A stretch of 64,000 nucleotides of DNA from Ignavibacteriota bacterium (GTDB taxonomy: Bacteria > Bacteroidota > Ignavibacteria > UBA10030): the NCBI GenBank assembly GCA_963701295.1, contig OY969585.1:2880895-2944894 (forward strand), in the 5' to 3' direction. Shown here one piece after another: positions 12,529 through 50,810 of the stretch. The number at the start of each line of letters is the position of its first letter. The first letter of the stretch is position 1. The notes beneath the pieces are model-generated. The model was not told the DNA's origin. It worked only from the letters and a program-made list of their open reading frames with translations, and made no database searches. A program made the position numbers and the translations under genes.

Positions 12529-13496
12529 TCACTTTCCTCAGCTTTAATGAATTCGAGCATGATGACACCTTCGCCCGGAAGATCGTCTGTAGAAGAAAAC
12601 GACTGATATTCTCTTGCAATCATGTAGGGCTCGCGCCAGAAGGGATAAAAAGCACCAAGAAGTCGCTTCATCGAAGTATTCCTGAAAAAAAGGCCACGGC
12701 TCTTTTCACCATAGACTGCGAAATAAACTGGCATACCCGTTACACTAAAAATGCACGACTCTAACCGTTTACGATCATAATAATGCTGCCAGAAGGTATA
12801 GCCATCGTCTCCCTGATTGAGCACACCGTACTGGTTATAGCTGATGTACTGTTCCGTCGATTGAGACAAACAGGGGAGCGTCAGGATGAGTTTTCCGCCA
12901 AGACGAAGTAGTGACCACATCGTTTTAAGGGCAGCTTTATCTTCAGGTATATGCTCCAGTACGGAGAGACAGGTTATGAGATCAAATGAAGCAGAAGGAA
13001 AACTGGTATTCTCAAGGATGTCATTGAAAAACTCGCAGCGAGATTTCAACCCAAGTGCATTTGCCAACTTCTCTGTCTCTCTCAGATCATTTGAATCTGG
13101 ATTAATTAGTTCAGCGGTTGCTCCTGGCGCCGCTTTCAAAAGAAGGAGCGGCATGAGCCGTGGGGAAGAGACATCAAGGTAGCGTCTGAAGGAAAAACCC
13201 TCCAACCTTTTCCAGACTTCGTGAAACTCAAAATAACGAGTTGAATCCATAGGTAAAAAAAGATAATTATAGCAGGTTTTCAGTGATATGCGTCTAGTAA
13301 TGAACAGAATCGCAGCGGTTGCTGCACAACGCAGATGAAAACCAATTCCTGGTGCTCCTGCAATTTGAGCCATTACAAGATAGAGGGGCGAGAAAAATAT
13401 TCCCTTCAGTCGTACCCACAGTTTGTACAAAAAGCTGTACGACATCGGAAGCGGGACTTCAATAAATTGTTTTCTAACATGAGGGTCGTTGTTCAT
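12525..13496 (-). CDS. Class I SAM-dependent methyltransferase with an N-terminal membrane segment
   Basis: DLITCLSVLEHIPEDKAALKTMWSLLRLGGKLILTLP (type-11-like methyltransferase fold). 4-bp overlap with the upstream GT2 gene. Confidence 0.55.
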   Translation of the reverse strand: MNNDPHVRKQFIEVPLPMSYSFLYKLWVRLKGIFFSPLYLVMAQIAGAPGIGFHLRCAATAAILFITRRISLKTCYNYLFLPMDSTRYFEFHEVWKRLEGFSFRRYLDVSSPRLMPLLLLKAAPGATAELINPDSNDLRETEKLANALGLKSRCEFFNDILENTSFPSASFDLITCLSVLEHIPEDKAALKTMWSLLRLGGKLILTLPCLSQSTEQYISYNQYGVLNQGDDGYTFWQHYYDRKRLESCIFSVTGMPVYFAVYGEKSRGLFFRNTSMKRLLGAFYPFWREPYMIAREYQSFSSTDDLPGEGVIMLEFIKAEESE

Positions 13497-13584
13497 TTTA
13501 TTTATGATGAACTAAATCTTTCTATTTAGAGATTATTAGGTTGCTTCGAAGCAATTCGCAATATAATTCCCGATAATTATTTTA

Positions 13585-14413
13585 GGTAATTAGGTAAGAA
13601 TGTAACCATAGAATAATTGTAAGTATATTATTTTATGGCAAGTTCCAGTAAAATCAGTTACCATGACAACTTTTTGAGTGGAAAGAAGTGTGTGTATTGT
13701 GGATCGTTCAACGTCTGTCGAACGAAACGCGGCTACGTAAAATGCAACAAGTGTCAAAGACAAAAAGGAAGTCATCTTCTTCGGCGAGAGTTGAAAATCA
13801 TTCTTGGTTTTTATCAACAGCAACCGGCGTATCGATTGGCAAATGATCTTGGAATAAATTATAAAACTGTTACCAGAGTCTATCAGCGCATTCGAGAAGC
13901 GATTTATCATGTGAGCGAACTTGAAGCTGGCAAGCTCAAAGGAGAAATAGAATTGGACGAAGCGTATTTTGGTGGTCGTCGCAAAGGCAAACGAGGACGC
14001 GGTGCAGGCGGAAAAAGTATCGTTTTTGGGCTTCTGGAGCGCAATGGACGGGTCTATACTAAGGTTGTTGATTCTGTCTCGGCCAATGAATTGATGGATC
14101 ATATTCGACAACATACCAAGAAAGGATCGGTCTACTTCACGGACACCTTTCGTAGTTATCGCTCCTTGAAACGCTTTGGAAAACATCATACCATTAGTCA
14201 TGGAAAGAAATTTCCGAAAACAAAGAATCATATTAATGGTATTGAAGGATTTTGGTCTTTTGCTAAACATGTCTTATATAATTATCGCGGTGTTTCAAAA
14301 TATCATTTTCCTATGTATCTTAAAGAAGTTGAATATCGTTTTAACCATCGCGATGACAATTTGTTGAAACTCTTTACTCTAATCTATTTCGGTTACGTTT
14401 CTACCTAATTACC
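13585..14413 (+). mobile_element. IS1595-family insertion sequence, copy 1
   Basis: 23-bp terminal inverted repeats GGTAATTAGGTAAGAATGTAACC (13585-13607) and the reverse complement of GGTAATTAGGTAGAAACGTAACC (14391-14413). A perfect 8-bp direct repeat TTATTTTA flanks the element at 13577-13584 and 14414-14421. Confidence 0.8.
13635..14408 (+). CDS. IS1595-family (ISXO2-like) DDE transposase
   Basis: 257 aa with an N-terminal Cys-rich zinc finger (CVYCGS...CNKCQ) and a DDE-type core. Near-identical to the CDS at 18264-19037. Confidence 0.85.
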   Translation: MASSSKISYHDNFLSGKKCVYCGSFNVCRTKRGYVKCNKCQRQKGSHLLRRELKIILGFYQQQPAYRLANDLGINYKTVTRVYQRIREAIYHVSELEAGKLKGEIELDEAYFGGRRKGKRGRGAGGKSIVFGLLERNGRVYTKVVDSVSANELMDHIRQHTKKGSVYFTDTFRSYRSLKRFGKHHTISHGKKFPKTKNHINGIEGFWSFAKHVLYNYRGVSKYHFPMYLKEVEYRFNHRDDNLLKLFTLIYFGYVST

Positions 14414-14436
14414 TTATTTTAATACCGGGTGCCACA

Positions 14437-15981
14437 TCAAATTGATTTTATTTTCAAAAAAAATAATGCATGCAACCATGTTCTCGTTACAGGAGTAATA
14501 ATTGCCGTTATTCCAAGTGTAAGAACTGAAATAATAATTAAATAGTGTACCATTATATATTGGGAAATAGGCTCTTTCACCAACATTCGACCAAAACCTG
14601 CTACCAATGTGGATGCCACAAGTGCTAGGCAGACATCTTGCCGATACCACCGCCACATTTCTTTTCGTAATATTTTTCGGTGCATTATGGGAATTTCAAA
14701 AAATACGTATCCGATATTCAAAAGCACCCATGCACTTGATGCACCTACAGCACCATATTGCATCGCTAAAAATATAATCAGTGGAACCATAATAATCACA
14801 GCAATAATATTTTTGATAAAAGATAATTTTGTCCACCCAAACGCCAGCTGTAATGCATACGGTGGATTCATAAGACCATTCAATGCAGTTCCACAAATCA
14901 TAATACTAACAATGAGATGAGTCTTTTCGGCTGTTATCGGATTCTGTGTCCACAGAAAAATAACTTCATAGGAAAACAAAGCAATAACAATTGCGATTGG
15001 CAAGGTCAATACTGCAATGAATTGGCAGCTTTTATGATAAAGACGTTTTAATTCATCCAAATCATTAATTGAAACCAGTTGAGTAAATCTTGGGTAAATA
15101 CTAAAAAAAACTGGAGAAAAAAGACGCCCAAGACTCATTGCTATCAAACTTGCAAGCGAATAATAACCAAACATTTCCAACGAGAGTAACTTGCTTAATA
15201 TAACCTTATCTATCTGCGTAAGAACAACTGCAAGAATGGAAATTCCACTCATTCCTGCTGTAAACTTCCAAATTCCTTGAAGAAGTATTTTTTGAAAAAC
15301 AGGTTTACTTTCAGTACGAGGAAGATTTTTCCACAAAGTAACTGTAAATATAAAAGAATTAACGATACTAATTCCCAATTGCCATAATAAAAATGCCTGT
15401 ATAGTCGGAGAAACCAACCATAAAACGAAGACAGCGCCAACACCGCGCAATGTGCCCATGCATATATTGATACCATTAAGAAGAACCTGTTTTTGCAATC
15501 CCATCAGTCCTCCAGAATAAAATCCGTTAGGCATCTGAAAAATCGCAATGAGACCCATAATCACAAATGCTTGTTCAATTATTTTGGGAGATAATGCTCC
15601 TGCTTTTACCCAATAATGCGCTAAGAATGGTGAAATTGATATAATCACAATTCCTACAAAAACAGCAATACCCCAATATATCGTTTCCAGAGTACGAACA
15701 AGGTTGCGTCTTTCTTGGTCCTTCCCCGGCAAAACGGATAGCCTCGCCATTTCCCTGGTTAGGGTACTTCCTAAACCTACGTCTAAAAGTCCAAAAATAG
15801 CTTGAAGTGTCGCAAATATACCAACTAAACCATACGACTCCATTCCTATGTACTTAATGTATAATGGAATAAAGAGCAAACCCATAAGAGCCTGCCAAAA
15901 GGTTCCGGCAAAATTGGCAGTAATATTTTTTTTTAAAGGATTTGAAGAAATTTGTGAAGATGTAGATTTTTCATTTATCAT
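14437..15981 (-). CDS. Wzx-type oligosaccharide flippase / polysaccharide biosynthesis protein (MOP superfamily)
   Basis: 514 aa with about 12-14 transmembrane helices. The N-terminus follows the family pattern N..W.......L.....YLG.E.YG... Confidence 0.6.
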   Translation of the reverse strand: MINEKSTSSQISSNPLKKNITANFAGTFWQALMGLLFIPLYIKYIGMESYGLVGIFATLQAIFGLLDVGLGSTLTREMARLSVLPGKDQERRNLVRTLETIYWGIAVFVGIVIISISPFLAHYWVKAGALSPKIIEQAFVIMGLIAIFQMPNGFYSGGLMGLQKQVLLNGINICMGTLRGVGAVFVLWLVSPTIQAFLLWQLGISIVNSFIFTVTLWKNLPRTESKPVFQKILLQGIWKFTAGMSGISILAVVLTQIDKVILSKLLSLEMFGYYSLASLIAMSLGRLFSPVFFSIYPRFTQLVSINDLDELKRLYHKSCQFIAVLTLPIAIVIALFSYEVIFLWTQNPITAEKTHLIVSIMICGTALNGLMNPPYALQLAFGWTKLSFIKNIIAVIIMVPLIIFLAMQYGAVGASSAWVLLNIGYVFFEIPIMHRKILRKEMWRWYRQDVCLALVASTLVAGFGRMLVKEPISQYIMVHYLIIISVLTLGITAIITPVTRTWLHALFFLKIKSI

Positions 15982-16082
15982 TCAAAACCCTGTACGAATA
16001 ATAATTTTTCCACATACTTATCGATCGCATATTTTTAAAATAATTCCTTTCCTGAATTGTTGAATACCAATACATATGGCCT

Positions 16083-16976
16083 CTAAAAGTTACTTTCACC
16101 CATCATGACATCTGCAAGCTGGTGAAAACTGACTTTTTGTTTCCATCCAAGGCTTTTAATCAAAGATGGATTACTAACTAATATGTTAAATTCAGGAACG
16201 TAATTATCTTTTAATTGGATATGCTCTTCCCATTTTTTGTTGATTTTACTGAAACAATATTCTATCCACTCCTTCATACTGTGCGCCTCTCCAGAACCAA
16301 TAACTGCCTCGTGAATATTATTTTGATTAATTAAAATCCAAATTGCTTCTATTACATCCAATGCATAATTAAATTCCTTTTGAACATTAATATTTCCCAA
16401 TTCTATTTTTTCGTTACTCCCCGACTTAATTCGCTTTATGGTTTGAACGATCTTCTGGTTAATATGTTTTTCTGATCTAATAGGACTATCATGATGAAAT
16501 AAATATCCGACATATGTTTGCAAACCAAACGTGTTCCGATAATATCGAGAAGAATAAACTGAGTGTATTCGTGATACAGAATATGGACTAGAACCTTCAA
16601 ATGAAGTTTGTTCATCGATTGGGTTTCCATCATTCTTAAATTGCAATGCACTTCCAGAAATAAATATTTTTGAGTCTGGACAGTGAAGTCTTGCAGATTC
16701 AAGAATATTTAGAGTACCGGTACAAATTGTTTGATGATTTTCAAATAATGCGGAGTGCTTTGTAGTAGAAATTGAGGCAAAATTGAAAATATATCTGGGC
16801 TGTTTTATTTTTATTTGTTCTTCAACAAAAGCATAATCACGGACATCGCCAATGATACTTCCTTCGGATCTCGATATGCAGTCTACCTTCTTTCCATTAT
16901 TTTCTAGTAAATACTTTAAATATCTGCCATCCTGACCATTTGAACCAAAGATAATTGCATCAATACGCTCCTTCAT
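16083..16976 (-). CDS. Short Gmd/Rmd-like extended SDR (GDP-4-keto-6-deoxy-D-mannose reductase-like)
   Basis: 297 aa. Aligns along its length with the Gmd at 51288-52328 (GSNGQDGRYL versus [10 protein letters not shown]; LFHHDSPIRSEKHINQKIV versus [18 protein letters not shown]) but is shorter. The catalytic Y-x-x-x-K reads YSVSR. Confidence 0.5.
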   Translation of the reverse strand: MKERIDAIIFGSNGQDGRYLKYLLENNGKKVDCISRSEGSIIGDVRDYAFVEEQIKIKQPRYIFNFASISTTKHSALFENHQTICTGTLNILESARLHCPDSKIFISGSALQFKNDGNPIDEQTSFEGSSPYSVSRIHSVYSSRYYRNTFGLQTYVGYLFHHDSPIRSEKHINQKIVQTIKRIKSGSNEKIELGNINVQKEFNYALDVIEAIWILINQNNIHEAVIGSGEAHSMKEWIEYCFSKINKKWEEHIQLKDNYVPEFNILVSNPSLIKSLGWKQKVSFHQLADVMMGESNF

Positions 16977-16988
16977 TGTAATTCCCTT

Positions 16989-18218
16989 TTATACAATTTC
17001 AATTTCCGGCAATGGGAAAATAAATTTTCCTCCTTGTGCGACATATTCTTTTTCGCGATGTAAAATACTATCCTTAAAATGCCAAGGTAAAACTAAAAAA
17101 TAATCTGGATTCATTGCTTTCGCTTCAACTTCAGATATGATCGGTATATTTGTGCCAGGAGTAAAAGAACCATATTTTTCCTTGTTTACTTCAGCAATAA
17201 ATGGAATGTGCTTACTCGTAAATCCACAAAATTGCAATAATACATTTCCCTTTGTACTAGCTCCATAACCAATAATTTTCCTTCCATCCGCAACTAATGC
17301 TTGAATTAAATTTATTAAGTTTTTCCGGTGTCGGAATACTCTTTCTTCAAAATCTCTATACGGTTTTGGATTATCAAGTCCCATATCATCTTCTTGTTTT
17401 AGCAACCAATCAATGATCGGTGTATTAGGCATATAAGACGCATTCTTTTTACAAGACGTAACCGCAAAACTTCCACCATTAATTGAGCTCATTTGAACAT
17501 CCATAACCTTCATTCCACAAATATCCAAAATACTTTTAACAACTTTTAAAGAGTAAAATTCTAAATGTTCATGACAAATTGTATCATAACTATTAGTTCG
17601 AAGCATACTTGGCATATAGCTTTGTTCAAAATGCCAAATACCATCATCTGTTAAACATTGTTCAATATCTCTTACAAAATCTATCGGTGATTCTAAATCA
17701 TAGAACATCGCAATGGATGTGATAATTTTAGCTTTGTCATTGGGGATATTGTCCTTAAATGTCTTTGCAGTAAAAAAATCAGGAATTAAAGTGATATCAT
17801 TTCCATAGTATTTTTTGAACTTCAATCCGGTAGGGTCTATTCCAACTTTTTTATGCTTTCCCGAATATGCCTTTAATGATGTTGCATCATTACTACCAAT
17901 ATCTATTACTAAGTCAGTATCGTTTAGTTTGACAAGACGTTCCAGGGTTTTAATTTTTTGTTCAAGATGTCTTACCATTGATGAATTTAATCCAGATCGG
18001 TATCCATAATTATCTCCGTACATCTCTTGAAGACTGTAAGATTGTTTCATTTGTAATAATCCACTGTCAGGACACCAAACTAGGTCCAAAGGACCTTTTG
18101 TGATCTTTTCATCAATCCTTTTTGGAAAAACGCCTGTTAGATATTGATTCCCAAGAGATAATACTGGTATAAGATTTGTACTCTGACTAATTCGACATTT
18201 GGTTATTTCTGAATACAT
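16989..18218 (-). CDS. NDP-hexose C-methyltransferase family (TylCIII-like; Methyltransf_13/14 domains)
   Basis: 409 aa. SAM motif DIGSNDATSL. C-terminal IIGYGASTKGNVLLQFCGF typical of the C-methyltransferase C-terminal domain. N-terminal degenerate zinc-ribbon region. Confidence 0.6.
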   Translation of the reverse strand: MYSEITKCRISQSTNLIPVLSLGNQYLTGVFPKRIDEKITKGPLDLVWCPDSGLLQMKQSYSLQEMYGDNYGYRSGLNSSMVRHLEQKIKTLERLVKLNDTDLVIDIGSNDATSLKAYSGKHKKVGIDPTGLKFKKYYGNDITLIPDFFTAKTFKDNIPNDKAKIITSIAMFYDLESPIDFVRDIEQCLTDDGIWHFEQSYMPSMLRTNSYDTICHEHLEFYSLKVVKSILDICGMKVMDVQMSSINGGSFAVTSCKKNASYMPNTPIIDWLLKQEDDMGLDNPKPYRDFEERVFRHRKNLINLIQALVADGRKIIGYGASTKGNVLLQFCGFTSKHIPFIAEVNKEKYGSFTPGTNIPIISEVEAKAMNPDYFLVLPWHFKDSILHREKEYVAQGGKFIFPLPEIEIV

Positions 18219-18258
18219 ACTTAATAGTCCTATATGATAGGTTCATATTATAGTTTTA

Positions 18259-19087
18259 GGTAATTAGGTAGAAACGTAACCGAAATAGATTAGAGTAAAG
18301 AGTTTCAACAAATTGTCATCGCGATGGTTAAAACGATATTCAACTTCTTTAAGATACATAGGAAAATGATATTTTGAAACACCGCGATAATTATATAAGA
18401 CATGTTTAGCAAAAGACCAAAATCCTTCAATACCATTAATATGATTCTTTGTTTTCGGAAATTTCTTTCCATGACTAATGGTATGATGTTTTCCAAAGCG
18501 TTTCAAGGAGCGATAACTACGAAAGGTGTCCGTGAAGTAGACCGATCCTTTCTTGGTATGTTGTCGAATATGATCCATCAATTCATTGGCCGAGACAGAA
18601 TCAACAATCTTAGTATAGACCCGTCCATTGCGCTCCAGAAGCCCAAAAACGATACTTTTTCCGCCTGCACCGCGTCCTCGTTTGCCTTTGCGACGACCAC
18701 CAAAATACGCTTCGTCCAATTCTATTTCTCCTTTGAGCTTGCCAGCTTCAAGTTCGCTCACATGATAAATCGCTTCTCGAATGCGCTGATAGACTCTGGT
18801 AACAGTTTTATAATTTATTCCAAGATCATTTGCCAATCGATACGCCGGTTGCTGTTGATAAAAACCAAGAATGATTTTCAACTCTCGCCGAAGAAGATGA
18901 CTTCCTTTTTGTCTTTGACACTTGTTGCATTTTACGTAGCCGCGTTTCGTTCGACAGACGTTGAACGATCCACAATACACACACTTCTTTCCACTCAAAA
19001 AGTTGTCATGGTAACTGATTTTACTGGAACTTGCCATAAAATAATATACTTACAATTATTCTATGGTTACATTCTTACCTAATTACC
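18259..19087 (-). mobile_element. IS1595-family insertion sequence, copy 2 (inverted relative to copy 1)
   Basis: Same terminal inverted repeats (18259-18281 and 19065-19087). The 8-bp flanks are TAGTTTTA and AAATTTTA, a 6/8 match, so the target-site duplication is imperfect. Confidence 0.8.
18264..19037 (-). CDS. IS1595-family DDE transposase
   Basis: 257 aa, identical to copy 1 except for one V/I substitution. Confidence 0.85.
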   Translation of the reverse strand: MASSSKISYHDNFLSGKKCVYCGSFNVCRTKRGYVKCNKCQRQKGSHLLRRELKIILGFYQQQPAYRLANDLGINYKTVTRVYQRIREAIYHVSELEAGKLKGEIELDEAYFGGRRKGKRGRGAGGKSIVFGLLERNGRVYTKIVDSVSANELMDHIRQHTKKGSVYFTDTFRSYRSLKRFGKHHTISHGKKFPKTKNHINGIEGFWSFAKHVLYNYRGVSKYHFPMYLKEVEYRFNHRDDNLLKLFTLIYFGYVST

Positions 19088-19245
19088 AAATTTTATTATA
19101 TTATTATTTTTAATAAATAGAAATCTATTATATACACTGATTGAAAAATAAATCCTATTCTGTTTAAGGTTATTAGATAGAGCGTAAATTTATCTTCTTG
19201 TTTAATAAAATAGACCACCGTAATTGTGAGGATGACCGCTGCAAT

Positions 19246-19556
19246 TCACGCCCACAATTTCATGTAAAATTTATTTCTTAAGAGTTCATAGCGATTTTCT
19301 GGATCCTTAACAAAATTGCGCCCAACAATGCTATCCAAACCCAATGTCGTAAGCACACCAAAAAGACCTGCAAATGCAATAACATGATTTCGAAGCCGTG
19401 TTGCTCCGGCCCAAGATAACTTGCAACCCATATTCCAACTACAAGTCCTACTCCCATTCTTAAGACTTTATCAAAAGACAACCAGCCAATATTATGGACA
19501 ATATTTTGCAACTTATCCGATTGCATGTATCTCTCTTCTGAGATCATCTTGCTCAA
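19246..19556 (-). pseudogene. Remnant of a Wzx-type flippase: N-terminal ~100 codons, frameshifted and truncated
   Basis: Two overlapping frames read ...NIGWLSFDKVLRMGVGLVVGIWVASYLGPEQHGF and ...VIAFAGLFGVLTTLGLDSIVGRNFVKDPEN. Joined, they match the conserved flippase N-terminus seen in the other two flippases. The remnant ends about 158 bp before IS copy 2. Confidence 0.5.
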
Positions 19557-20419
19557 TTGTCTTTCAATTCTTCCATACTTGAGGTACTCTTGAGGATTGG
19601 GGTTACTTTCACTTGCCGAATCCGACGTGCGCTCTTCGAGATTATTGCAAAGATGAAATTCTCTGCTCGGATCTCTTCATTGAATTCTGGCAGTCGTCCT
19701 GTGATTGTCTGTAAATATCCGGCTACTGTTTCATACTCCGGTGCCTCCGGCAGCTTCAAACGAAACTGCTGATTAAAGTCTGCAATGGATAACGCAGCAT
19801 CTACAATAACCGACCCATCTCCAGCTTGTTCTACTGATTTGCGCACTTCGTCATATTCATCAAAGATGTCTCCGACAATTTCTTCGATGATATCCTCCAT
19901 GGTAACGATGCCTTCTGTTCCGCCATACTCGTCTACTACAGTACCGATATGAACTTTGTATTGCTGGAATTCATGCAAGAGCTGGCTAATCTTTTTTGAT
20001 TCTGGAACGAAGTGCGCAGGCCGGATAATATCCTGGAGAATAATAAGCGAGCGATGCTCTAAAAGACTGAGCAAATCTTTGCTGTAAATAACACCAATGA
20101 TATGGTCAATAGTACCTTTGTAGACAGGTAATCGTGAGTACCCTTCTTCAATCACTTTTCGTACTAAAACATCCCGAGACATAGAAATGTCAAGAGCAAC
20201 AATATCAGGACGCGGCACCATGATTTCCTTTGCTGTTATATCGGAAAACTGTAAAATACTCTTTATGAGTTCAAGTTCCGTTTTATCAATTGCCCCGCTG
20301 AGAGAACCGGCATCAATAACCTGCTTGAGCTCGTCTTCCGATAGTTTCGCTCTCAGCAATCCTCCTTTGATCAGTGCATCTCTCAATATGGTTTTCATTG
20401 ATCTCATATCTTCATCCAC
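19553..20419 (-). CDS. corC: CBS-pair plus CorC/HlyC-domain protein (CorC/YbeX-like; no DUF21 membrane domain)
   Basis: 288 aa. A CBS pair (ITAKEIMVPRPDIV...) followed by the C-terminal transporter-associated CorC_HlyC domain. Confidence 0.75.
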   Translation of the reverse strand: MDEDMRSMKTILRDALIKGGLLRAKLSEDELKQVIDAGSLSGAIDKTELELIKSILQFSDITAKEIMVPRPDIVALDISMSRDVLVRKVIEEGYSRLPVYKGTIDHIIGVIYSKDLLSLLEHRSLIILQDIIRPAHFVPESKKISQLLHEFQQYKVHIGTVVDEYGGTEGIVTMEDIIEEIVGDIFDEYDEVRKSVEQAGDGSVIVDAALSIADFNQQFRLKLPEAPEYETVAGYLQTITGRLPEFNEEIRAENFIFAIISKSARRIRQVKVTPILKSTSSMEELKDN

Positions 20420-20473: not shown

Positions 20474-21298
20474 TTAGTGCAATGGCCCTCTACATTGCTG
20501 TGACTGCTTCGCATAAACACCTTGATGAGCCAAGGTCTGAACATCTTCAATATATTCGAATCTTGATTTTAGTACCGATATTTCTTCTAAAAACAATCCT
20601 TTTGCAGGAGCAGACATTCCGGCAATAGACCTCTCATTTGATTCTAGTATTTTATAAAATTCTTCATATTTCATATGCCCTCTTCCTACATTTACCATCG
20701 TTCCAACTAATGTACGAACCATTCCATGCAAAAAGCGATTTGCAGAAATTTCATAGATCAATAATTTTTCTTTCTGAATCCATTGTGATGTCAATACACT
20801 GCATCGATGATTGTGAATATCAGTTTCCACTTTACAGAATGAACGAAAACTATGCGTGCCCATTACTTGTTGAGCACAGTTTTGCATCGACGAAAGATTT
20901 AACTTTTGGAACACCTGCCAGCAATAATTGCGTTGAATTGCCGTCGGTTCTTGACTAATCGAATATGTGTACCGTCTGCTTTTTGCGCCGTATTGAGCAT
21001 TGAAGTCTAATGGGGCATTCATCGCTTCGAGAACAATAATGCTATGGGGCATAACCGCATTCAGACTTTTTGCAAGTAGATTGATTTCAACATCTCGCTC
21101 CACAAAGAAGCTTGCCACCTGACCACGAGCATGTACCCCGGCATCTGTTCTCCCCCCGCCGGTAATTCGAATATCTAGCTGAAGTATTTGTTTGATTGCT
21201 TTTTCAACTTCTTCTTGAACAGAACGTCCATTGGTTTGAAATTGCCAGCCAACGAAGTCGGTACCATCATATTCAAGCGTAAGCCGGATGAGAGGCAT
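20474..21298 (-). CDS. truA: tRNA pseudouridine(38-40) synthase
   Basis: LTLEYDGTDFVGWQ...GGGRTDAGVHARGQV. Confidence 0.9.
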   Translation of the reverse strand: MPLIRLTLEYDGTDFVGWQFQTNGRSVQEEVEKAIKQILQLDIRITGGGRTDAGVHARGQVASFFVERDVEINLLAKSLNAVMPHSIIVLEAMNAPLDFNAQYGAKSRRYTYSISQEPTAIQRNYCWQVFQKLNLSSMQNCAQQVMGTHSFRSFCKVETDIHNHRCSVLTSQWIQKEKLLIYEISANRFLHGMVRTLVGTMVNVGRGHMKYEEFYKILESNERSIAGMSAPAKGLFLEEISVLKSRFEYIEDVQTLAHQGVYAKQSQQCRGPLH

Positions 21299-40640: not shown

Positions 40641-42440
40641 TCAGCATTTCAGAGACCAATAATATCGTTTGATACCTTGCCCAATACCTGATAATATACA
40701 ATAACTTTCTGAAAGAGATAATCTAAACTGCAGCGTCTTTTTAATTGTTCGTAACACACAAAACGGAATAACGAACATCATGCATAAATGATTTCGATTT
40801 TTTAGGAAATAAATAATTTCGTTGTGGTGAAAATCCCTGTAATATTGCGCCGTTGCATTTATCTGTAAAAGAACATTTCCTGTCTTTTGAGGGATATGCT
40901 GGATAGTTGTCTCGTTCGTAAAACGAATACGGTAGCCCAAGCTTTTCAAACGCTCAGAAACATCTTGCTCTTCAAATATTGATGTCCCTCGAAATATTGC
41001 ATCAAAATAACCGGCTTCCTGCAACACAGTTTGTTTTATGGACATATTTCCCCCTACCAAAGTTTCGACATCACAACAAACATCGGAATGAAATCCATCT
41101 TTCATACGTCCGTACCATAATACACGACAAATATCTGTAGACATCAACGGCGGTAAATCGTTTTCAATAATTCTGCATGAAACACCCCCTATCGTAGTAT
41201 CTCTGTGATTCTTCACATGAACTTCCATCATCTTAGGAGAAGGAACAATATCATCATCACAGAATAAAAGAATATCTCCTGTTGCGTTACGAATTCCGAT
41301 ATTCTTAGCATTAGAGCGGTTGGGATAGGCAGAATACAGTAACTTCAATGGATAAGGAACAGATATACCTTGTCGTGATACTTGCTGTGTTGCACTACTT
41401 TGATCTACCACAATCACTTCAAACGATGTATAGGTTTGTTCTTTCAATGCTGTAAGTAAGTGGAGAACACATTCCGGACGATTACAGGTCGGAATAATAA
41501 TAGAAACAAATGGTTGAAGACGTTGTTCTTCACTTTGGATAACAGTAAGAGCATTCGCTATTTGTTGAAAGTAATTATTGGAAAATCGATGTACGGATAG
41601 GATATGATTACGTGATTCAATCCATTTGGCAAGAAGTCGAAACCAGAGACTATATATTCGCTTCATCCATATCGCACGTCGTAAGGCATGACGACGATGG
41701 AAGCGAAGAAAATTACGATAAAATTCTATTTTGTGCCGTTCCTGTACTTGCGTAAAACTTGCGCCTCCGTAGTGAATAATTGACACGGATGGAACATGCA
41801 TCACTTTAAATCCCGATGTTCGCAATCGGAACGGTAAATCAGCATCTTCAAAGAAAAAGGAAAAACCTTCATCAAATCCACCAACAGCATTAAAGTGCGA
41901 ACGGCGCAAGAATAGAAACGCCCCCTCAACATAATTTACATTTTGCCGCAGGGAGATGTTTTTGCGTCGCTCTTCAAATTCACGCCATATACCACGAAAA
42001 TTGTTCGGCACAATTTCTAATAACAACCCGCGTAACACTGTCGTTCGGGAAAACCTTGTCCTGCTATTGTCGTTTCCATCTTTATGTTGACATCCTAGCA
42101 AAGCAATCAGAGCATCTTGTTCCATAAAAGAACACAGCGTTTCTATAGCTCCGGGTTCGACAATAACATCGGCATTGGAAATAACTACATATCGTGTCGT
42201 AAGCAGTGTAGAACCAGTGTTAGCGGCATGCCCATAACCGAGATTCTCGTTCAACACACAAAATCGAATTTGTGGATACTGCACCCGAAGCTGCTCTACG
42301 CTACCATCAGTTGAACCTTGATCGAGAACAATAAGATTCTTTAACAACACACCATCCGATAAAAAAGAAGCAACACAATTCAACAAATGTTGACACGTAT
42401 TCCAACTGATAATAACTACTCCAATATCAGGTAAAATCAC
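40641..42440 (-). CDS. Glycosyltransferase with two tandem GT2 domains
   Basis: N-terminal domain (VVIISWNTCQHL...DQGSTDGS) plus a second GT-A domain (VSIIIPTCNRPECV...VVDQSS). Confidence 0.7.
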   Translation of the reverse strand: MILPDIGVVIISWNTCQHLLNCVASFLSDGVLLKNLIVLDQGSTDGSVEQLRVQYPQIRFCVLNENLGYGHAANTGSTLLTTRYVVISNADVIVEPGAIETLCSFMEQDALIALLGCQHKDGNDNSRTRFSRTTVLRGLLLEIVPNNFRGIWREFEERRKNISLRQNVNYVEGAFLFLRRSHFNAVGGFDEGFSFFFEDADLPFRLRTSGFKVMHVPSVSIIHYGGASFTQVQERHKIEFYRNFLRFHRRHALRRAIWMKRIYSLWFRLLAKWIESRNHILSVHRFSNNYFQQIANALTVIQSEEQRLQPFVSIIIPTCNRPECVLHLLTALKEQTYTSFEVIVVDQSSATQQVSRQGISVPYPLKLLYSAYPNRSNAKNIGIRNATGDILLFCDDDIVPSPKMMEVHVKNHRDTTIGGVSCRIIENDLPPLMSTDICRVLWYGRMKDGFHSDVCCDVETLVGGNMSIKQTVLQEAGYFDAIFRGTSIFEEQDVSERLKSLGYRIRFTNETTIQHIPQKTGNVLLQINATAQYYRDFHHNEIIYFLKNRNHLCMMFVIPFCVLRTIKKTLQFRLSLSESYCILSGIGQGIKRYYWSLKC

Positions 42441-43348
42441 AATCGACTCCGAAAAAGCAAAAATAATTTATCGCCTAAATAGGTTGCAAACCAATAGCGC
42501 CATAGAATCCAATTTTTCCACATTGTGGGAAATGCCTGCACAAACCATTGGCGCGCTATTCGCATGTGACCATGATAGTATTCATTTAAGCCGAGGCGAA
42601 ACTTTATAGCATATTGGTCGTTCACCGTCAGGTTGTTGTGAAGTTTATGTAATAAATAATCATTAGCAAAATTCAAGGTATAAATTCGTTGTTCGTTTTT
42701 TCGTTCGACAGAAATAGCATGTGCATGGAGGCGATACCGAAGAAGGACTTTTTGAAGATTATAAAAGTTCGTAACCGGCAATAGGCGAAGAAAGAATTCA
42801 TAATCAATTGCGCTTTGACACATTTCATTGAAACCTCCAACAACATCAAATAACTCTCTGCGCATCATGGTCGCAGGAAAGCACATAGAAGAATGCTTTG
42901 TTATTTCATATTCAATATCAGTATGTTGTTCTGGTAATCTGCGAATGGTGTGCATCACGTTGTTGCGTGCATCCATAAGCTGGTACCAGCAGGATACCAC
43001 GCCAATTTCAGGATGTTCCTGCAAAATATGATATTGTTCCTTTAATCGATCAGGTAGCGCAACATCATCTGCATCCATAAAAGCAATAATCGGAGCTTTG
43101 GTATGTTTAATTCCTTCATTTAAGGCATGCGCACGACCGGAATGATTAATAAAAATAGCTTTTCTCCTATCATCATGAAGCGACTCGATAAGAGTCCTCG
43201 TTCTGTCGGTAGAACCATCATCCACGATAAGCAATTCATAGTCGGTCATCGTCTGAGCAAGAATACTACGAATCGCTGCTTCAAGATACCGTTCTCCATT
43301 GTACACTGACATAACAATGGACACTTTACTCAATAGATCTTTACTCAT
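42437..43348 (-). CDS. Glycosyltransferase family 2
   Basis: VSIVMSVYNGERYLEAAIRSI...IVDDGSTDRT...DADD. Confidence 0.75.
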   Translation of the reverse strand: MSKDLLSKVSIVMSVYNGERYLEAAIRSILAQTMTDYELLIVDDGSTDRTRTLIESLHDDRRKAIFINHSGRAHALNEGIKHTKAPIIAFMDADDVALPDRLKEQYHILQEHPEIGVVSCWYQLMDARNNVMHTIRRLPEQHTDIEYEITKHSSMCFPATMMRRELFDVVGGFNEMCQSAIDYEFFLRLLPVTNFYNLQKVLLRYRLHAHAISVERKNEQRIYTLNFANDYLLHKLHNNLTVNDQYAIKFRLGLNEYYHGHMRIARQWFVQAFPTMWKNWILWRYWFATYLGDKLFLLFRSRL

Positions 43349-43360
43349 ACCATTCTCTTA

Positions 43361-44281
43361 TCACAACCAATGAGGTCTGCGGAAAGAATACTCCCCATCT
43401 CGAAAAAATCCACCGGCATGGTTTCCGTAACCATATCTCTTTTGAATATTACGAGACATAACTTTTCGTAGCTTCCAATTTCTTATCACTATCCATAAAC
43501 CTGCAATAAATCCTCTTGAAATGGTTAAAGCACATCCCTTGCAAATCCCAAAAATAATTCTTCCCATGATAATCCTAGTTATTCTTCCTATAACCCTATG
43601 TAATGAATAATGTGAGACTAAAATAATAATGATATTGCGATTACAATAGTATTGTTTTCTTAAATCGATTGAATTATTCGTTTTATACAAACGATGTGAG
43701 GATGAATAGGTATGATGCACGATTGCATTGGACTCATATTCAATATCATAACCTTTGTGTAATACGCGGAGGGAGAAATCTATTTCATGCGAATAAAGAA
43801 ACAAGTCTTCGTTAAACATCCCGGCAGATAAAAACATCGCATGTCGAAACAGCACTCCACAACCAATAAAGTTTGGATAAATAGAAAAACTTTTTTGAGT
43901 AGTCTCATGTTTGTTCAATGTATCATTATATATATTCAATGCTAATATTGCACAGTTAGGTAAACGATTCATCGTTTGTACACTTATTCCAAGCGCATCT
44001 TTTTCCGGATAACTATCATCATCCAAAAATAACAGATACTCCCCTTTCGCTATCTTTGCTCCCTCATTCCAGCCTGCTATGCCAATATTTTTCTGTAACT
44101 CAAGCAAACGGACGGTAGGATATTCTGATTTCACCATTTCAACAGAGCCGTCGTGAGAATTGTTATCAACAACAACCACTTCTATGTTTTTGTAGTCCTG
44201 CTCAAATACTTTTTGGAGAGTATTCCGTAAGTAGTCTTTTCTGTTGTACGAAAGAATATTTACTGTAACAAGAGGCTGCAT
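43361..44281 (-). CDS. Glycosyltransferase family 2
   Basis: VTVNILSYNRKDYL...VVVDNNSHDGS. Confidence 0.7.
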   Translation of the reverse strand: MQPLVTVNILSYNRKDYLRNTLQKVFEQDYKNIEVVVVDNNSHDGSVEMVKSEYPTVRLLELQKNIGIAGWNEGAKIAKGEYLLFLDDDSYPEKDALGISVQTMNRLPNCAILALNIYNDTLNKHETTQKSFSIYPNFIGCGVLFRHAMFLSAGMFNEDLFLYSHEIDFSLRVLHKGYDIEYESNAIVHHTYSSSHRLYKTNNSIDLRKQYYCNRNIIIILVSHYSLHRVIGRITRIIMGRIIFGICKGCALTISRGFIAGLWIVIRNWKLRKVMSRNIQKRYGYGNHAGGFFRDGEYSFRRPHWL

Positions 44282-44282
44282 G

Positions 44283-45377
44283 TTAAGAATGGGTGATGTT
44301 CTTAAAAGCTGTTAATGACTGCGCAATAACCTGATCCATATTGTAATAGCGATAAGTCGCAAGCCGGCCGACAAAATGCACAGTTTTCAATTTTTCCGCT
44401 TCGGCAGCATATAATTTATATAACGCTGTATTTTCGTCATTCGGTATAGGGTAATATGGCTCGCCTGTCTCGTGTGAATATTCTTTTGCTATAGTTGTCT
44501 TGCTCTGGTGTTGTCCGGTAATATGTTTGAATTCGATACTCCGTGTATAGGTAAAATCGTTCGGGTAGTTCACCTGCGCAACCGGTTGAACAAATTCCTT
44601 CTCGTGAGTCTCAAATTCAAAACTGAGCGAACGATACGGTAATGCACCAAATGTTTGATGAAAATACTCGTCAATCGGACCGGTGAAAATCAACCGGTTA
44701 AAAGTCCCGGACGGTATATTTTTAAAATCAGTATTGAGCTCAACCGAAATCAACGGATGAGCGATCATTTTGTTAAACATCTCGGTGTATCCATTAGCGG
44801 GCATCATTTGAAAGCGGTCATCAAAATATCGATCATCTGTATTCGTTCGGATCGGTAACCGGCCACAAACAGATGGTGCTAAATGTGATGGTTCGACACC
44901 CCAATGTTTTGTCGTATATCCTTTATACAACAAATCATACAATCGCCTGCCGATCTTTGAAACAACAACATCTTCAGAGTTTCGAATAAATGAGATCGAT
45001 TCTTTCTCCCGCTCATAAAAGGCTCTTACTTCTTCGTCGGTTGTATAATGAAACCCAAAAAGAGTGTTGACAGTTGTTCTATTGACCGGCATCGGAACAA
45101 GTGAACCGTTCACCGACGCCAAGACCCGATGTTCGTACGGATGCCATGAAGTAAATTGCGATAAGTACTTGATGATGCTTTCATCATTTGTATGGAACAA
45201 ATGAGGACCATAATGGTGTATACGAATACCGTGTTCATCGATGGAATCATATGCATTTCCACCGATGTGAGAACGACGATCAATCACTAGAACCTTCTTT
45301 CTTAATTGCGACGCCAATCGCTCCGCAAGCACACAACCAGCAAAACCGGCACCAACTATGAGATATTCGTATTTCAT
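44283..45377 (-). CDS. glf: UDP-galactopyranose mutase
   Basis: YEYLIVGAGFAGCVLAERLA FAD-binding fold and a length of 364 aa, typical of Glf. Confidence 0.9.
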   Translation of the reverse strand: MKYEYLIVGAGFAGCVLAERLASQLRKKVLVIDRRSHIGGNAYDSIDEHGIRIHHYGPHLFHTNDESIIKYLSQFTSWHPYEHRVLASVNGSLVPMPVNRTTVNTLFGFHYTTDEEVRAFYEREKESISFIRNSEDVVVSKIGRRLYDLLYKGYTTKHWGVEPSHLAPSVCGRLPIRTNTDDRYFDDRFQMMPANGYTEMFNKMIAHPLISVELNTDFKNIPSGTFNRLIFTGPIDEYFHQTFGALPYRSLSFEFETHEKEFVQPVAQVNYPNDFTYTRSIEFKHITGQHQSKTTIAKEYSHETGEPYYPIPNDENTALYKLYAAEAEKLKTVHFVGRLATYRYYNMDQVIAQSLTAFKNITHS

Positions 45378-46459
45378 TGTACATCCAATTTAATGGAATC
45401 CATCCTTAATACAATGGACGATATTTTTTCGGCCACATACTCAGAACCTTCGGGAGACAGATGCCCATCGTCTTTGATATAATAATTTCCAATATCAGTC
45501 GGTGACATTTTTTTTATATCATCATATAACTCATAATAGAAGACCTGCGTATCTTTAAGTGATTGTATAAAGTCATGGTCTTCTAAATTTTCTATTTGCA
45601 GTAAATTATCTACCCTGGGACAACGTATAACAATAAGACGTTGGTTATTGAGTTTTACACAAGTGATTAAATCTGCAAATATCTTTTTAACGATACCGTC
45701 GCTTTTGAACTTTAAATATCGTTTGTAAAAAGGGTTTAATAATTTACTATACTCTAACACTTTAATAATAACTTCGGGTGAATTATTTCTTGATGATCTT
45801 AACATCAGTTCACCATTTTCTAAATCATAACTTGGTTTATTCATTCCTTCAACTTTGCGATAGGCTTCTAATACGCGCGGAATGTCATCCTCGATAAACA
45901 TGAGAACGATGATTTGAGGCTTTATAATTGGTTCGTATTTTTTGTATGCTAGATACATTTGATCAATACCCCACCCAGGCATCCCCATATTATAAACGTT
46001 ATACTGTGACCCCAGTTTTTCTTGAAGCTTCGACGAAATAGTTGATTTTTCATCAAGAAAAACTCCAAATATAAATGAATCACCCAATAACATCACTCTT
46101 GTGTTGTTGTTTTGAGCACAAGCTGTATCATAATCGTTAGTATTTCTAAACCCTTGATTATTTATTACATACTCCACTTTTAGATCTTTGTACTTTTTAT
46201 TTGAAAATGGAATGTACTTATTCTTTTTGCATACCCATCCCAAGTCCTTTTCAGTTAACGGCCACGTGACATCGACAAGATTTGTATCAACATGGATCTC
46301 CTTATTTTTATATTGCCCGGGATATGTTCGTGAATAATTTGTTTTATCCGACCAGAATATTCTCAGCCCAATCTCAAGTAAAATCATTAACATAAGCGTT
46401 AATAGCACATTCCATAAAATTAGCCTTACAATTCTTAGATATTTTTTCCGCTTGGTCAT
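45374..46459 (-). CDS. Membrane-anchored SGNH/GDSL-family hydrolase (possible polysaccharide O-acyl esterase or transferase partner)
   Basis: Block I LLGDSFIFG, block II GMPGWG and block V DDGHLS motifs. N-terminal transmembrane helix. 4-bp overlap with glf. Confidence 0.55.
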   Translation of the reverse strand: MTKRKKYLRIVRLILWNVLLTLMLMILLEIGLRIFWSDKTNYSRTYPGQYKNKEIHVDTNLVDVTWPLTEKDLGWVCKKNKYIPFSNKKYKDLKVEYVINNQGFRNTNDYDTACAQNNNTRVMLLGDSFIFGVFLDEKSTISSKLQEKLGSQYNVYNMGMPGWGIDQMYLAYKKYEPIIKPQIIVLMFIEDDIPRVLEAYRKVEGMNKPSYDLENGELMLRSSRNNSPEVIIKVLEYSKLLNPFYKRYLKFKSDGIVKKIFADLITCVKLNNQRLIVIRCPRVDNLLQIENLEDHDFIQSLKDTQVFYYELYDDIKKMSPTDIGNYYIKDDGHLSPEGSEYVAEKISSIVLRMDSIKLDVQ

Positions 46460-46713
46460 TATTACGCTATTCAGTTCGTTATTCTTGTGTAATTCTTCAG
46501 AAGATTTAATCTGTTAAGTAATTTCTGATAAAGCGTTGAGAATAATCGTTGTCACTGATGCACAAATTGAAATTTTTGAAAAAGGTAGATGATCGGCTGG
46601 AATAATATTCATGTTGTCAGTTTTAGTTTAAATTCAGACTTCCTAAAAGATAAGAATGCCCGCCCTTCCAATTATTCTGACGTATTAAACTAGATTATTC
46701 TATAATCAAATAG

Positions 46714-48078
46714 TTACGTTTGTTTCCGATACCATCTCGTCATCAAAATGCCATACACAGCGATAAATGCTGCGCCTGAGGTTCTAAGGCTGAAAGAAAA
46801 AAGTAATACACAGAGCCCCATAGCCATAAGAGCGATAACCGCTATCTTTATAATGCTAAGGACTTCTTTCGTGAAGGTCAATGGAACTTCATGGTTAAGC
46901 GCCTTCCATGAACGCACTGCAACAAGAGTCTCGGCAAAGATTGTTGTCAGAGCGGCTCCAGTCATTCCATACATCGGAATAAGGAACACATTGAGAAGAA
47001 GATTCAATCCTGCACTCCAAGCGACAATCGATAAGTATTTCTTTTCCTTCCCGAGCAAAAGAAGCGGCTGAGCAAATGTGATACTGATGAAAACAGCTAT
47101 TATATCCAACGAGAGAAGACGGAGCGGAAGCACTGCACCGTCGTACGCCGAACCATAGAGCATTGTAATGAATTCCGGCGCATAGATGCCTATGAGGATT
47201 CCGGTCGGCAATCCAATCATACACATCGTCAAGACAAACGCTTTCCATTCTTTCACTGCTGCGGTTTTAAGTGAAACGAGATACGGCAAATAAGAAGCGA
47301 AAAGAAGATTAGGAATTGCCGAAGCGAGCGTGACAATTTTGTAAGCACTTGTGTACAGTCCGACTTCACGGCTTGTTTTGAACACCCCCAGAAGCACCGT
47401 ATCTATATTCAAATAAACCTGGACACACATGGAAGCCGCACCTACTGTAATCGCCGAAATGCAATATGCGCGAAGTTGCTCCCACCGTACGCTATGCATC
47501 CATACAAAGTTTTTTCTGAGTATTCCTGACATTGGAATGAGCGCGAGGGCGGAAGAAACTGCAAAAAAGACCGGCACACGGGGAAGATCTCCAGCACTTT
47601 GGACGCCGCCAATAACAAAAAGAAGATACAGCAAGCTCTGCGCAAAACGGCTGACCGCCACAATATGCATTTGATTATGAGCGCGGAAAAAGAATTGAAA
47701 CGTAAAGGGAATGGTAAACAGTGCCAAACCTTGCAGAATCAATAATTGTTTTACAGCTAAAGAAAACGGAACAAACAAGCAGACCAGCAGCAAGAGAGCA
47801 AAAGAGGCGATCGCAGAACCTGATTTTAAAAGAAAGAGAGAAGTGAGAATGCCGGAAGGTTCTTTTTCAGAACGCGCAGTCTCACGCGCGCCGACGATAT
47901 CATACCCTGGATTAGCAATAAGAGCAAAATATGTATACACCGCAACGACAAATCCATAGTCGCCAAACCCATTCACTCCAATTCTTCTCGCAAGATATGC
48001 AGTAGTGAGGAACCCTAAGACTTTGGAAACAATTTCTGCCGACGATAAGAAAAAGAAATTTTTTTCAGCACTTCTCAT
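46714..48078 (-). CDS. Wzx-type flippase / polysaccharide biosynthesis protein (MOP superfamily)
   Basis: Start set at the internal ATG (MRSAEKNFFF...) to avoid a 140-nt overlap. Multi-transmembrane. N-terminal pattern ...LARRIGVNGFGDYG... typical of the family. Confidence 0.55.
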   Translation of the reverse strand: MRSAEKNFFFLSSAEIVSKVLGFLTTAYLARRIGVNGFGDYGFVVAVYTYFALIANPGYDIVGARETARSEKEPSGILTSLFLLKSGSAIASFALLLLVCLFVPFSLAVKQLLILQGLALFTIPFTFQFFFRAHNQMHIVAVSRFAQSLLYLLFVIGGVQSAGDLPRVPVFFAVSSALALIPMSGILRKNFVWMHSVRWEQLRAYCISAITVGAASMCVQVYLNIDTVLLGVFKTSREVGLYTSAYKIVTLASAIPNLLFASYLPYLVSLKTAAVKEWKAFVLTMCMIGLPTGILIGIYAPEFITMLYGSAYDGAVLPLRLLSLDIIAVFISITFAQPLLLLGKEKKYLSIVAWSAGLNLLLNVFLIPMYGMTGAALTTIFAETLVAVRSWKALNHEVPLTFTKEVLSIIKIAVIALMAMGLCVLLFSFSLRTSGAAFIAVYGILMTRWYRKQT

Positions 48079-48101
48079 GCGAATGGCGGCAATTTCACGC
48101 G

Positions 48102-48896
48102 TTATCGTTTCAAGAACCGTGCGTGGAGAATACGGAGAAGAAACAACGGATTTCCGATCAAATATCGTTTCCACAATCTTCGCGGTTCTTGGATGAGGCG
48201 GAACGCCCACTCGAATCCAAGAGCTCCGAGCCACCGCGGGCAATTTATTTTATCGCCTGAGACGGTATCAAGAAAACCTCCGCCCATCCAGATTAAATTC
48301 ACATTCAGCTTTGAAAAGTTTTCCTTCGTCCAGGCTTCCTGCAGGGGAACTCCCATTCCTAAAAGAAGAATATCCGGCTGGCAAGCATTAATAGCACGAA
48401 CGACAGAATTGTTTTCCTCTTCCGAAATAAAGCCATGATGATATCCCGAAATCTGCAAGCCGGGATATAATTCCTTCAGCCTCGTTGCGGCACGCTCTGC
48501 AACAGACGATGCACCGCCAAGGAAGAACAACTTCAAGTCGTTTTCAACAGCACTCTCGGCTATGTCGTAAATATAATCCGAGAGCGTAATACGCTCGGGA
48601 ATATTTTCGCCTAAGAGCCGTGCTCCTAAGCGAACTCCCTCGCCATCGCAATAACTCACGAGCGATTGATCAAGGAATTCCTTGAACCATGGTATCTCCA
48701 GCGCGACATCAATCGTGTGAATATTGATATAGGAAAACCAGCCTCGCCGTTTGGTTTTTATAGAGTAGAGAATGAGCGACTTGAATTGCGAACGTGTGAG
48801 AATATCAACACGGATATCGAGAATACTCGTTGATCGAATCAATGGTTTTTCTTGTTCACTATGATGGCTCGGATGTGCGGACGCTGAATTGGACAT
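48102..48896 (-). CDS. WecB/TagA/CpsF-family glycosyltransferase (GT26)
   Basis: ILDIRVD...SYINIHTIDVA...LFFLGGASSVAERAATRLKELYPGLQISGYHHGF...GMGVPLQE. Confidence 0.7.
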   Translation of the reverse strand: MSNSASAHPSHHSEQEKPLIRSTSILDIRVDILTRSQFKSLILYSIKTKRRGWFSYINIHTIDVALEIPWFKEFLDQSLVSYCDGEGVRLGARLLGENIPERITLSDYIYDIAESAVENDLKLFFLGGASSVAERAATRLKELYPGLQISGYHHGFISEEENNSVVRAINACQPDILLLGMGVPLQEAWTKENFSKLNVNLIWMGGGFLDTVSGDKINCPRWLGALGFEWAFRLIQEPRRLWKRYLIGNPLFLLRILHARFLKR

Positions 48897-48912
48897 AATC
48901 ACCAACCGCTCA

Positions 48913-50786: not shown

Positions 50787-50810
50787 GAATGTATAGTTCT
50801 TTGTGCGTAG

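Follow-up and report, generated by a model that had tools for sequence, protein, structure and literature searches.

When a decayed flippase gene ends a few tens of bases short of an insertion sequence (IS), the obvious question is whether the mobile element broke the gene and brought in its replacement. The window (the whole 64-kb stretch of DNA that was analysed) presents this situation where a variable glycan locus begins: along the direction of transcription, truA and a corC-like gene are followed by a flippase stub, an IS copy, and a module of three genes for a C-methyltransferase, an NDP-sugar epimerase/dehydratase-like protein and an intact flippase of 514 aa (Table 1). Beyond this flippase lies a second IS copy in the opposite orientation and then further methyltransferase and glycosyltransferase genes. 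A first-pass annotation had proposed that an IS-bracketed cassette with its own complete flippase displaced the ancestral one together with its neighbours, and had regarded the locus as the footprint of a past glycan-locus remodelling. The second of these ideas is borne out, as a decayed flippase indeed adjoins a module with its own intact flippase at the variable-locus boundary. The first is contradicted by IS-free relatives, which have the same stub and carry the module at the same site. We instead favor, at a probability of roughly 85%, a history in which the stub was truncated long ago beside the module, eroded neutrally by lineage, and only much later acquired its IS neighbors by simple insertion.

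Table 1. Features of the locus in window coordinates, in the order of transcription along the minus strand
Feature	Position	Strand	Remarks
truA	20474-21298	minus	together with corC, conserved flank of the variable glycan locus
corC-like gene	19553-20419	minus	CBS pair and CorC_HlyC domains, Pfam PF00571/PF03471
Flippase stub	19117-19526	minus	fossil of a PST/Wzx flippase gene
Stub segment 1	19395-19526	minus	ATG at 19526; codons 1-44; MQSDKLQNIVHNIGWLSFDKVLRMGVGLVVGIWVASYLGPEQHG; ends at 1-nt deletion
Stub segment 2	19249-19395	minus	shifted frame; 49 codons; LRNHVIAFAGLFGVLTTLGLDSIVGRNFVKDPENRYELLRNKFYMKLWA; aligned to P0002, P0005, P0001, P0003
In-frame TGA	19246-19248	minus	same codon is GGA in L001, GAA in L082
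Stub segment 3	19117-19245	minus	43 more codons past the TGA; IAAVILTITVVYFIKQEDKFTLYLITLNRIGFIFQSVYIIDFY
AT-rich spacer	19088-19116	minus	from truncation point to IS copy 2; includes flank AAATTTTA (19088-19095)
IS copy 2	18259-19087	minus	829 bp; IS1595 family; transposase gene 18264-19037
Leader of C-methyltransferase gene	18219-18258	minus	includes flank TAGTTTTA (18251-18258)
C-methyltransferase	16989-18218	minus	Pfam
NDP-sugar epimerase/dehydratase-like gene	16083-16976	minus	Pfam
Intact PST flippase, 514 aa	14437-15981	minus	Pfam
IS copy 1	13585-14413	plus, inverted relative to copy 2	duplication TTATTTTA perfect at 13577-13584 and 14414-14421

Judged by its homologies, the stub reads as the fossil N-terminal third of a PST/Wzx flippase gene of the MOP superfamily. 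The translation of the repaired stub matches the Pfam family PF01943 (Polysacc_synt) with 31.7 bits against a cut-off of 28.2 (E = 1.3e-7), and this match spans positions 2-113 of the 274 in the profile. A search with a profile built from the exact window pieces and database fragments recovered 3930 proteins at E <= 1e-10, mostly of 430-480 aa. Residues 2-137 of the stub align with residues ~15-155 of flippases of 436-480 aa with E values of 1e-35 to 1e-52, and the nearest intact flippases that we found anywhere are 45-54% identical to it. The earlier description of a flippase fragment downstream of corC, with one frameshift and then a stop, is thus upheld, and alignment to full-length flippases is significant. 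Against both intact flippases of the window the identity is only ~20% (E = 1e-4 and 0.03), and we accordingly rejected the stub as a copy of either.

The stub comprises ~137 codons compared to ~450 in a full flippase, which has about 12-14 transmembrane helices, and ~300 codons of continuation are absent. The fragment had been rightly recognized as an N-terminal piece; its size had been put too low at ~100 codons, as the homology passes the TGA and the flippase-like reading continues in the unchanged frame ('...IGFIFQSVYIIDFY') down to 19117. Likewise, a distance of 158 bp to the IS holds for the open frame and not for the homology: in BLASTP alignments, the similarity to intact flippases stops at 19117, that is, at residue 137, and only 29 nt from IS copy 2. 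The expected continuation is indeed missing on the far side of the element, where the DNA consists of a 40-nt leader and then the C-methyltransferase start codon, with no flippase sequence. The frameshift at ~19395/19396 is a deletion of 1 nt; in a three-way DNA alignment with the metagenomic contigs L001 and L082, the window alone has a gap of one base there. With this deletion, the in-frame TGA and the loss of the ~300 codons, there is no intact full-length flippase ORF at the stub; it is a pseudogene, and the two short ORFs are one gene split over two frames.

As the frameshift is a single-base difference and the source is apparently a metagenome-derived contig of 3.64 Mb, one might suspect a sequencing or assembly artefact, with the frameshift, the stop or the junction being erroneous and the gene being intact or otherwise arranged. 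This is hardly credible given that an independent Logan contig (L163, run ERR10755942) is 100% identical to window 20572-19062, including the frameshift, the TGA and the stub/IS junction, and another (L170) is likewise 100% identical across the junction at IS copy 1, although the reads of both may be those of the source genome itself. Further, the truncation is also found in other assemblies (L001, L082), and two-thirds of the gene would be missing even without the frameshift and the stop. The lesions of the stub and the IS junctions are, in short, not peculiar to one assembly. Exact sequence matches to the window came only from Logan contigs of this one run, in which the IS is present too. 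Exact-protein look-ups with the short ORF P0004, the transposase and the C-methyltransferase returned no records and no same-species IS-free allele.

The decisive comparison is with more distant relatives of the locus. A protein search with the repaired fragment gave five matches, two of which are short 'PST transporter' ORFs on the JGI contigs L001 and L082. The first of these contigs (7.4 kb) has the order truA-corC-stub-C-methyltransferase-epimerase-flippase without an IS; it is collinear with the window on either side of IS copy 2 at 86-89% nucleotide identity, with the 829-bp element being the sole large difference, and its stub is 81.6% identical to that of the window over the fragment. 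The second (2.2 kb) reads corC-trpF-stub, followed after 36 nt by the C-methyltransferase gene, again without an IS. In both, the stub breaks off at the same codon as in the window and runs straight into the same C-methyltransferase leader. Scanning metagenomes with the C-methyltransferase yielded three further IS-free contigs in which truA-corC is directly followed by the module. In one of these (L086), blastn shows the stub to be reduced to its first ~90 nt and last ~70 nt by an internal deletion of ~290 nt, in another (L083) the last 75 nt are all that remains, and in the third (L084) a blastn search for pieces of the stub detected none. In a multiple alignment, the stub-bearing lineages have a common 3' end ('GATTTCTATTTATTA...'), and the C-methyltransferase leader 'ATCACATAGGACTATTAAATATG' is common to all the relatives aligned; the part of the leader nearest the start codon is conserved in the IS-free relatives and contiguous there with the stub. 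Position 19117 is an old truncation point common to the window, L001, L082, L083 and L086.

These IS-free comparators are metagenome contigs that are 80-90% identical to the window, rather than sister strains. Among the relatives fetched by corC or C-methyltransferase homology, the IS had no blastn match at the homologous locus, and a search of that locus with the inverted-repeat 23-mers, allowing <=5 mismatches, revealed no footprint of IS excision. An intact gene at the position of the stub, which the first-pass annotation had thought worth seeking in relatives, did not turn up among the GTDB species representatives: none has an intact ortholog of the stub beside corC, and no first-gene flippase there exceeds ~30% identity to it.

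The pattern of substitution in the stub gives its relative age. Between the window and L001, differences at the three codon positions number 29/24/23 in the stub, compared to 9/5/46 in corC and 16/15/76 in the C-methyltransferase gene. The divergence of the stub is also about the level of the third-position divergence in the adjoining genes. This flat distribution across codon positions indicates that the stub was already dead when the lineages of the window and L001 split. The individual lesions differ by lineage: the window has the 1-nt deletion and the TGA, L001 has another 1-nt deletion ~60 codons further on than that of the window, and L082 has a TAG at codon 43 and has lost the start ATG. 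The 3' truncation is the only lesion common to all stub lineages. The stub was thus already dead and truncated in the ancestor that these sequences share, or else in a block that they exchanged.

The same data speak to the idea that the short ORFs still encode something useful, either a small membrane protein with a function or a leader peptide kept by selection. In its favor, the ~410-nt stub persisted through ~18-20% divergence, and P0001 has been annotated as a transporter by JGI. Yet the substitutions are flat across codon positions, the stops and frameshifts fall at different places in each lineage, and the stub has been lost or mostly lost in L083, L084 and L086, making such a function extremely unlikely.

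We then consider the elements themselves. The transposase matches PF12762 (DDE_Tnp_IS1595; E = 3.4e-32) and the model NF033547 (164.7 bits, cut-off 75), and NCBI names one member of its 90%-identity cluster 'IS1595 family transposase'. A CxxC...CxxC motif is visible in residues ~19-40, with the zinc-ribbon domain PF12760 reaching only E = 2. At both copies, the terminal inverted repeats GGTAATTAGGTAAGAATGTAACC and GGTAATTAGGTAGAAACGTAACC agree at 20 of 23 positions. Of the 829 nt, 828 are the same in the two copies; the sole difference, G at 14064 in copy 1 versus A in copy 2, lies within the transposase gene (13635-14408 in copy 1), and both transposase ORFs are intact, with 257 aa. Public metagenomes contain more than 100 transposases that are >=90% identical, so the element is widespread and probably active.

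The IS1595 family, for which PMC8101967 cites Siguier et al. 2009, normally generates 8-bp target duplications (PMC8101967), and the perfect duplication around copy 1 indicates a simple insertion. The site of copy 1 is the loop of a 7-bp hairpin (minus strand, CCCGGTA...TATCGGG) placed 23 nt past the stop codon of the 514-aa flippase. The hairpin halves flanking the element fit together, and this hairpin may be the terminator of the module. A promoter and terminator scan of 13400-19700 gave no excess over shuffled sequence (28 vs 25.5 and 5 vs 3.3, respectively), a result with no bearing on how the IS affects expression. Both IS copies are recent, lineage-specific simple insertions into AT-rich spacers that were already contiguous, and with a divergence of 0.12% they are about two orders of magnitude younger than the truncation. 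Thus, the occurrence of the same stub in IS-free relatives, its neutral drift, and the near-identity of the two copies together show that both the truncation and the arrival of the module predate the two insertions.

It is against this background that an IS-driven origin has to be weighed, in which the arrival of copy 2, or of the IS-bracketed cassette moving as a composite transposon, would have removed or pushed aside the neighbors of the resident flippase along with its 3' part. The proximity of the element to the truncation point, the mismatch between the 8-nt flanks of copy 2, and the fact that two near-identical inverted copies bracket exactly a three-gene module with a complete flippase would all be natural outcomes of such an event. 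However, the same truncation point, the same module and the same site are found in relatives without the IS, including two (L001, L082) in which the same short ORFs occur with no IS nearby, a finding that the first-pass annotation had itself named as telling against its proposal. The sequence flanking copy 2 is contiguous in these relatives, and they lack the same ~300 codons, which is not what a deletion adjacent to the element predicts. Moreover, the stub has evolved neutrally since before the split of the window and L001, at a time well before that implied by the divergence of the IS copies. As for a composite transposon, a perfect duplication belongs to copy 1 by itself, and at the outer ends of the pair the flanks TTATTTTA (13577-13584) and AAATTTTA (19088-19095) are unlike. 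We consider this scenario very improbable. The collinearity of both sides of copy 2 with the relatives means that no gene was lost there, and their contiguity excludes an inversion or ancestral deletion between the IS copies as well as arrival as a composite transposon. An inversion of the module between the inverted copies was also rejected on its own account, since the module is collinear with L001 and the flanks of copy 1 still match.

The flanks of copy 2 are the one untidy aspect of the insertions. That they are non-identical, as first described, is correct: TAGTTTTA and AAATTTTA match at 6 of 8 positions. A 6/8 match is reached in ~2% of cases among random local 8-mers, and each flank is equally similar (6/8) to the duplication at copy 1, which is unrelated; a common target motif (xxxTTTTA) could thus lie behind the resemblance. 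Compared to the IS-free relatives, there are ~17-25 extra AT-rich bases around the site (19088-19125, 18235-18258). These bases include an imperfect 17-nt direct repeat with one copy on each side of the element (minus strand, TAAAAATAATAATATAA and TAAAACTATAATATGAA). In other metagenomes, a related 829-bp IS with 85% nucleotide identity (L164-L169) has TAACTTTA on both sides, as inferred by joining split contigs. On the contig L164 (257-1085) this related IS has unlike flanks, TAAATTTT and TAACTTTA, which could mean either that the assembly was joined across the repeat or that the DNA was truly rearranged.

Most simply, the mismatch at copy 2 would represent substitutions in a neutrally evolving AT-rich duplication, or a small local slip. 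Alternatively, the flanks might record a second small IS-mediated event, in which tens of bases were locally deleted or duplicated or the element recombined with another copy. The equal likeness of each flank to the duplication of copy 1, the extra bases with the direct repeat, and the unlike flanks in L164 are in keeping with such an event, and a small IS-associated rearrangement on that scale is conceivable at this site. Nevertheless, both flanks are collinear with the IS-free relatives, leaving no room for an inversion or ancestral deletion between the copies; a 6/8 match is rare by chance among local 8-mers; and the family normally makes 8-bp duplications (PMC8101967), as copy 1 does. On balance, we view a second event as unlikely, if still worth bearing in mind.

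Next, we turn to the conserved flank and the turnover of the genes beyond it. The corC-like protein matches CorC/GldE-like NCBIfam models with scores below the cut-off, and it groups the window with MAGs labelled as uncultured Ignavibacteriota/Bacteroidota from peat, fen and soil. The truA-corC pair is kept in ~30 Ignavibacteriota-type relatives. In many GTDB relatives the flank is truA-corC-trpF, and a PST flippase of 415-532 aa opens the variable locus (L002, L003, L008, L010). Relatives with equally similar corC genes (L002-L006) have wholly different downstream gene sets, and such turnover is the usual pattern of a glycan locus replaced through recombination. A trpF-like (PRAI) gene lies between corC and the glycan locus in most relatives (L082 503-1171; L002, L008, L009, L011-L014). 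No trpF homologue was found when looked for across the 64-kb window, and the window, L001, L083, L084 and L086 are without trpF after corC, which points to a second deletion at the boundary of corC and the glycan locus.

The module itself (14437-18218) is collinear with L001 at 85.7% nucleotide identity and occupies the same site in the IS-free L001, L083, L084 and L086. At its far end, homology between the window and L001 ceases inside the 514-aa flippase gene, within ~40 nt of its end (window ~14476; L001 7303-7402), and the genes past this flippase differ between relatives. Together, these two observations mark a second recombination boundary of the module, near IS copy 1. In a further contig (L085, 1-4310), the same module follows trpC-trpF-trpB and ~670 nt of non-coding DNA, showing that it is found in more than one genomic context.

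These features raise the possibility that the stub is the 5' end of a transferable block, with the junction of stub and module having formed once elsewhere and spread between lineages as their flanks recombined homologously. On one side of the stub the neighbor is always the C-methyltransferase gene, whereas on the other side it is corC in the window and in L001 but trpF in L082. Between the window and L082, corC has 77% nucleotide identity and a third-position divergence of 0.45, compared to 92% and 0.22 for the C-methyltransferase gene; the stub, at 0.20 over all positions, is close to the latter and not to corC, so that in this pair its history is that of the module. The wholly different loci behind equally close corC genes and the presence of the module after trpC-trpF-trpB in L085 are further points in favor of a mobile block. 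Against this, a flippase in first place after corC/trpF is the normal layout, making a resident origin equally natural, and the divergence signal comes from one comparison only, with a contig of 2.2 kb. Hence, we hold a transferable block to be a tentative option, plausible in outline but on the doubtful side. The stub may be either a resident gene or one that travelled in with the module; in both cases the event predates the IS, and the verdict on the elements is unaffected.

The favored history, of old truncation followed by late insertion, can be laid out in three steps. First, an old deletion or illegitimate recombination would have taken everything past codon ~137, and the stub would thereby have been fused to a few tens of bases upstream of the C-methyltransferase/epimerase/flippase module; here the junction itself is directly seen and the mechanism is our inference. 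The module's own 514-aa flippase would have left the old flippase dispensable. Most simply, the stub is the relic of the first-gene flippase of the variable locus, because in the relatives the place behind corC/trpF is usually taken by a flippase. Second, the stub has drifted neutrally and been eroded differently in each lineage (window, L001, L082, L086, L083, L084). Third, in the lineage of the window only, an IS would have entered the AT-rich spacer at a point 29 nt beyond the end of the stub and 40 nt short of the C-methyltransferase start codon, and its sister, copy 1, the hairpin loop just beyond the module flippase. Neither IS copy, then, would have made the truncation or delivered the module.

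The closest parallel lies in the remnant processing genes (wzy/wzx) of O-antigen and capsule clusters, for example those of Salmonella groups B1 and D1, which contain wzy remnants of which serogroups keep different pieces after 'serial deletions', with IS elements close by in some forms (PMC3715488). As in that case (PMC3715488), a dead piece of a glycan-processing gene remains here once its role has passed to another gene, the pieces retained differ by lineage, and IS elements are nearby. The two differ in that the stub is the N-terminus of a flippase at the conserved-flank boundary rather than a polymerase gene inside the cluster, that the host is an uncultured Ignavibacteriota-type lineage of peat and fen metagenomes, and that the IS beside the stub is demonstrably later than the truncation. 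The element resembles the IS1595 family in its single transposase ORF with the DDE_Tnp_IS1595 domain, its terminal inverted repeats, the 8-bp duplication at copy 1 and, from joined split contigs, at the related element, and insertion targets that are AT-rich and end in TTTA. It departs from the family norm in that copy 2 lacks a clean duplication and the zinc-ribbon match is not significant, although the CxxC...CxxC motif is visible. Most zinc-finger-bearing IS1595 subgroups are longer than 829 bp. In the galF/gnd-flanked O-antigen loci of E. coli, modules are replaced by recombination between the conserved flanking genes. The present locus similarly has a conserved flank (truA-corC, often with trpF) followed by content that differs among relatives with similar flanks, except that here the pattern alone is seen. 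Thus, the case is a new example of the remnant-gene kind in an uncultured phylum, along with a new IS1595-family element.

The locus also has the outward look of a composite transposon, in that two 99.9%-identical inverted IS copies bracket a 3.8-kb module of three genes. In a departure from such a transposon, IS-free relatives carry the module at the very same chromosomal site, copy 1 is flanked by a duplication of its own, and the outermost flanks are mismatched, so there is no sign that the IS-bracketed unit ever moved. A different thought is that the pair, having only lately come to bracket a self-contained module for making and flipping a C-methylated sugar, constitutes a nascent composite transposon or an invertible on/off expression segment. 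If so, recombination between the 829-bp inverted repeats would switch expression of the module within a population, and the imperfect match between the flanks of copy 2 would be a vestige of this activity; we regard this as highly improbable.

The stub is an ordinary gene fossil, and its importance beyond correct annotation is small. The short ORFs at 19246-19556 are to be annotated as one flippase pseudogene, and the two IS copies are to be read as recent insertions rather than as agents of remodelling; an IS adjoining a truncated gene is no evidence of the IS having caused the truncation. The relatives do offer a tidy natural series of remnant erosion, set where a hypervariable glycan locus begins and drawn from an uncultured phylum that has been little studied. 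Elsewhere in the window, a second polysaccharide cluster (42400-50800) has its own flippase at 46714-48243 (PF01943, E = 3.5e-26).
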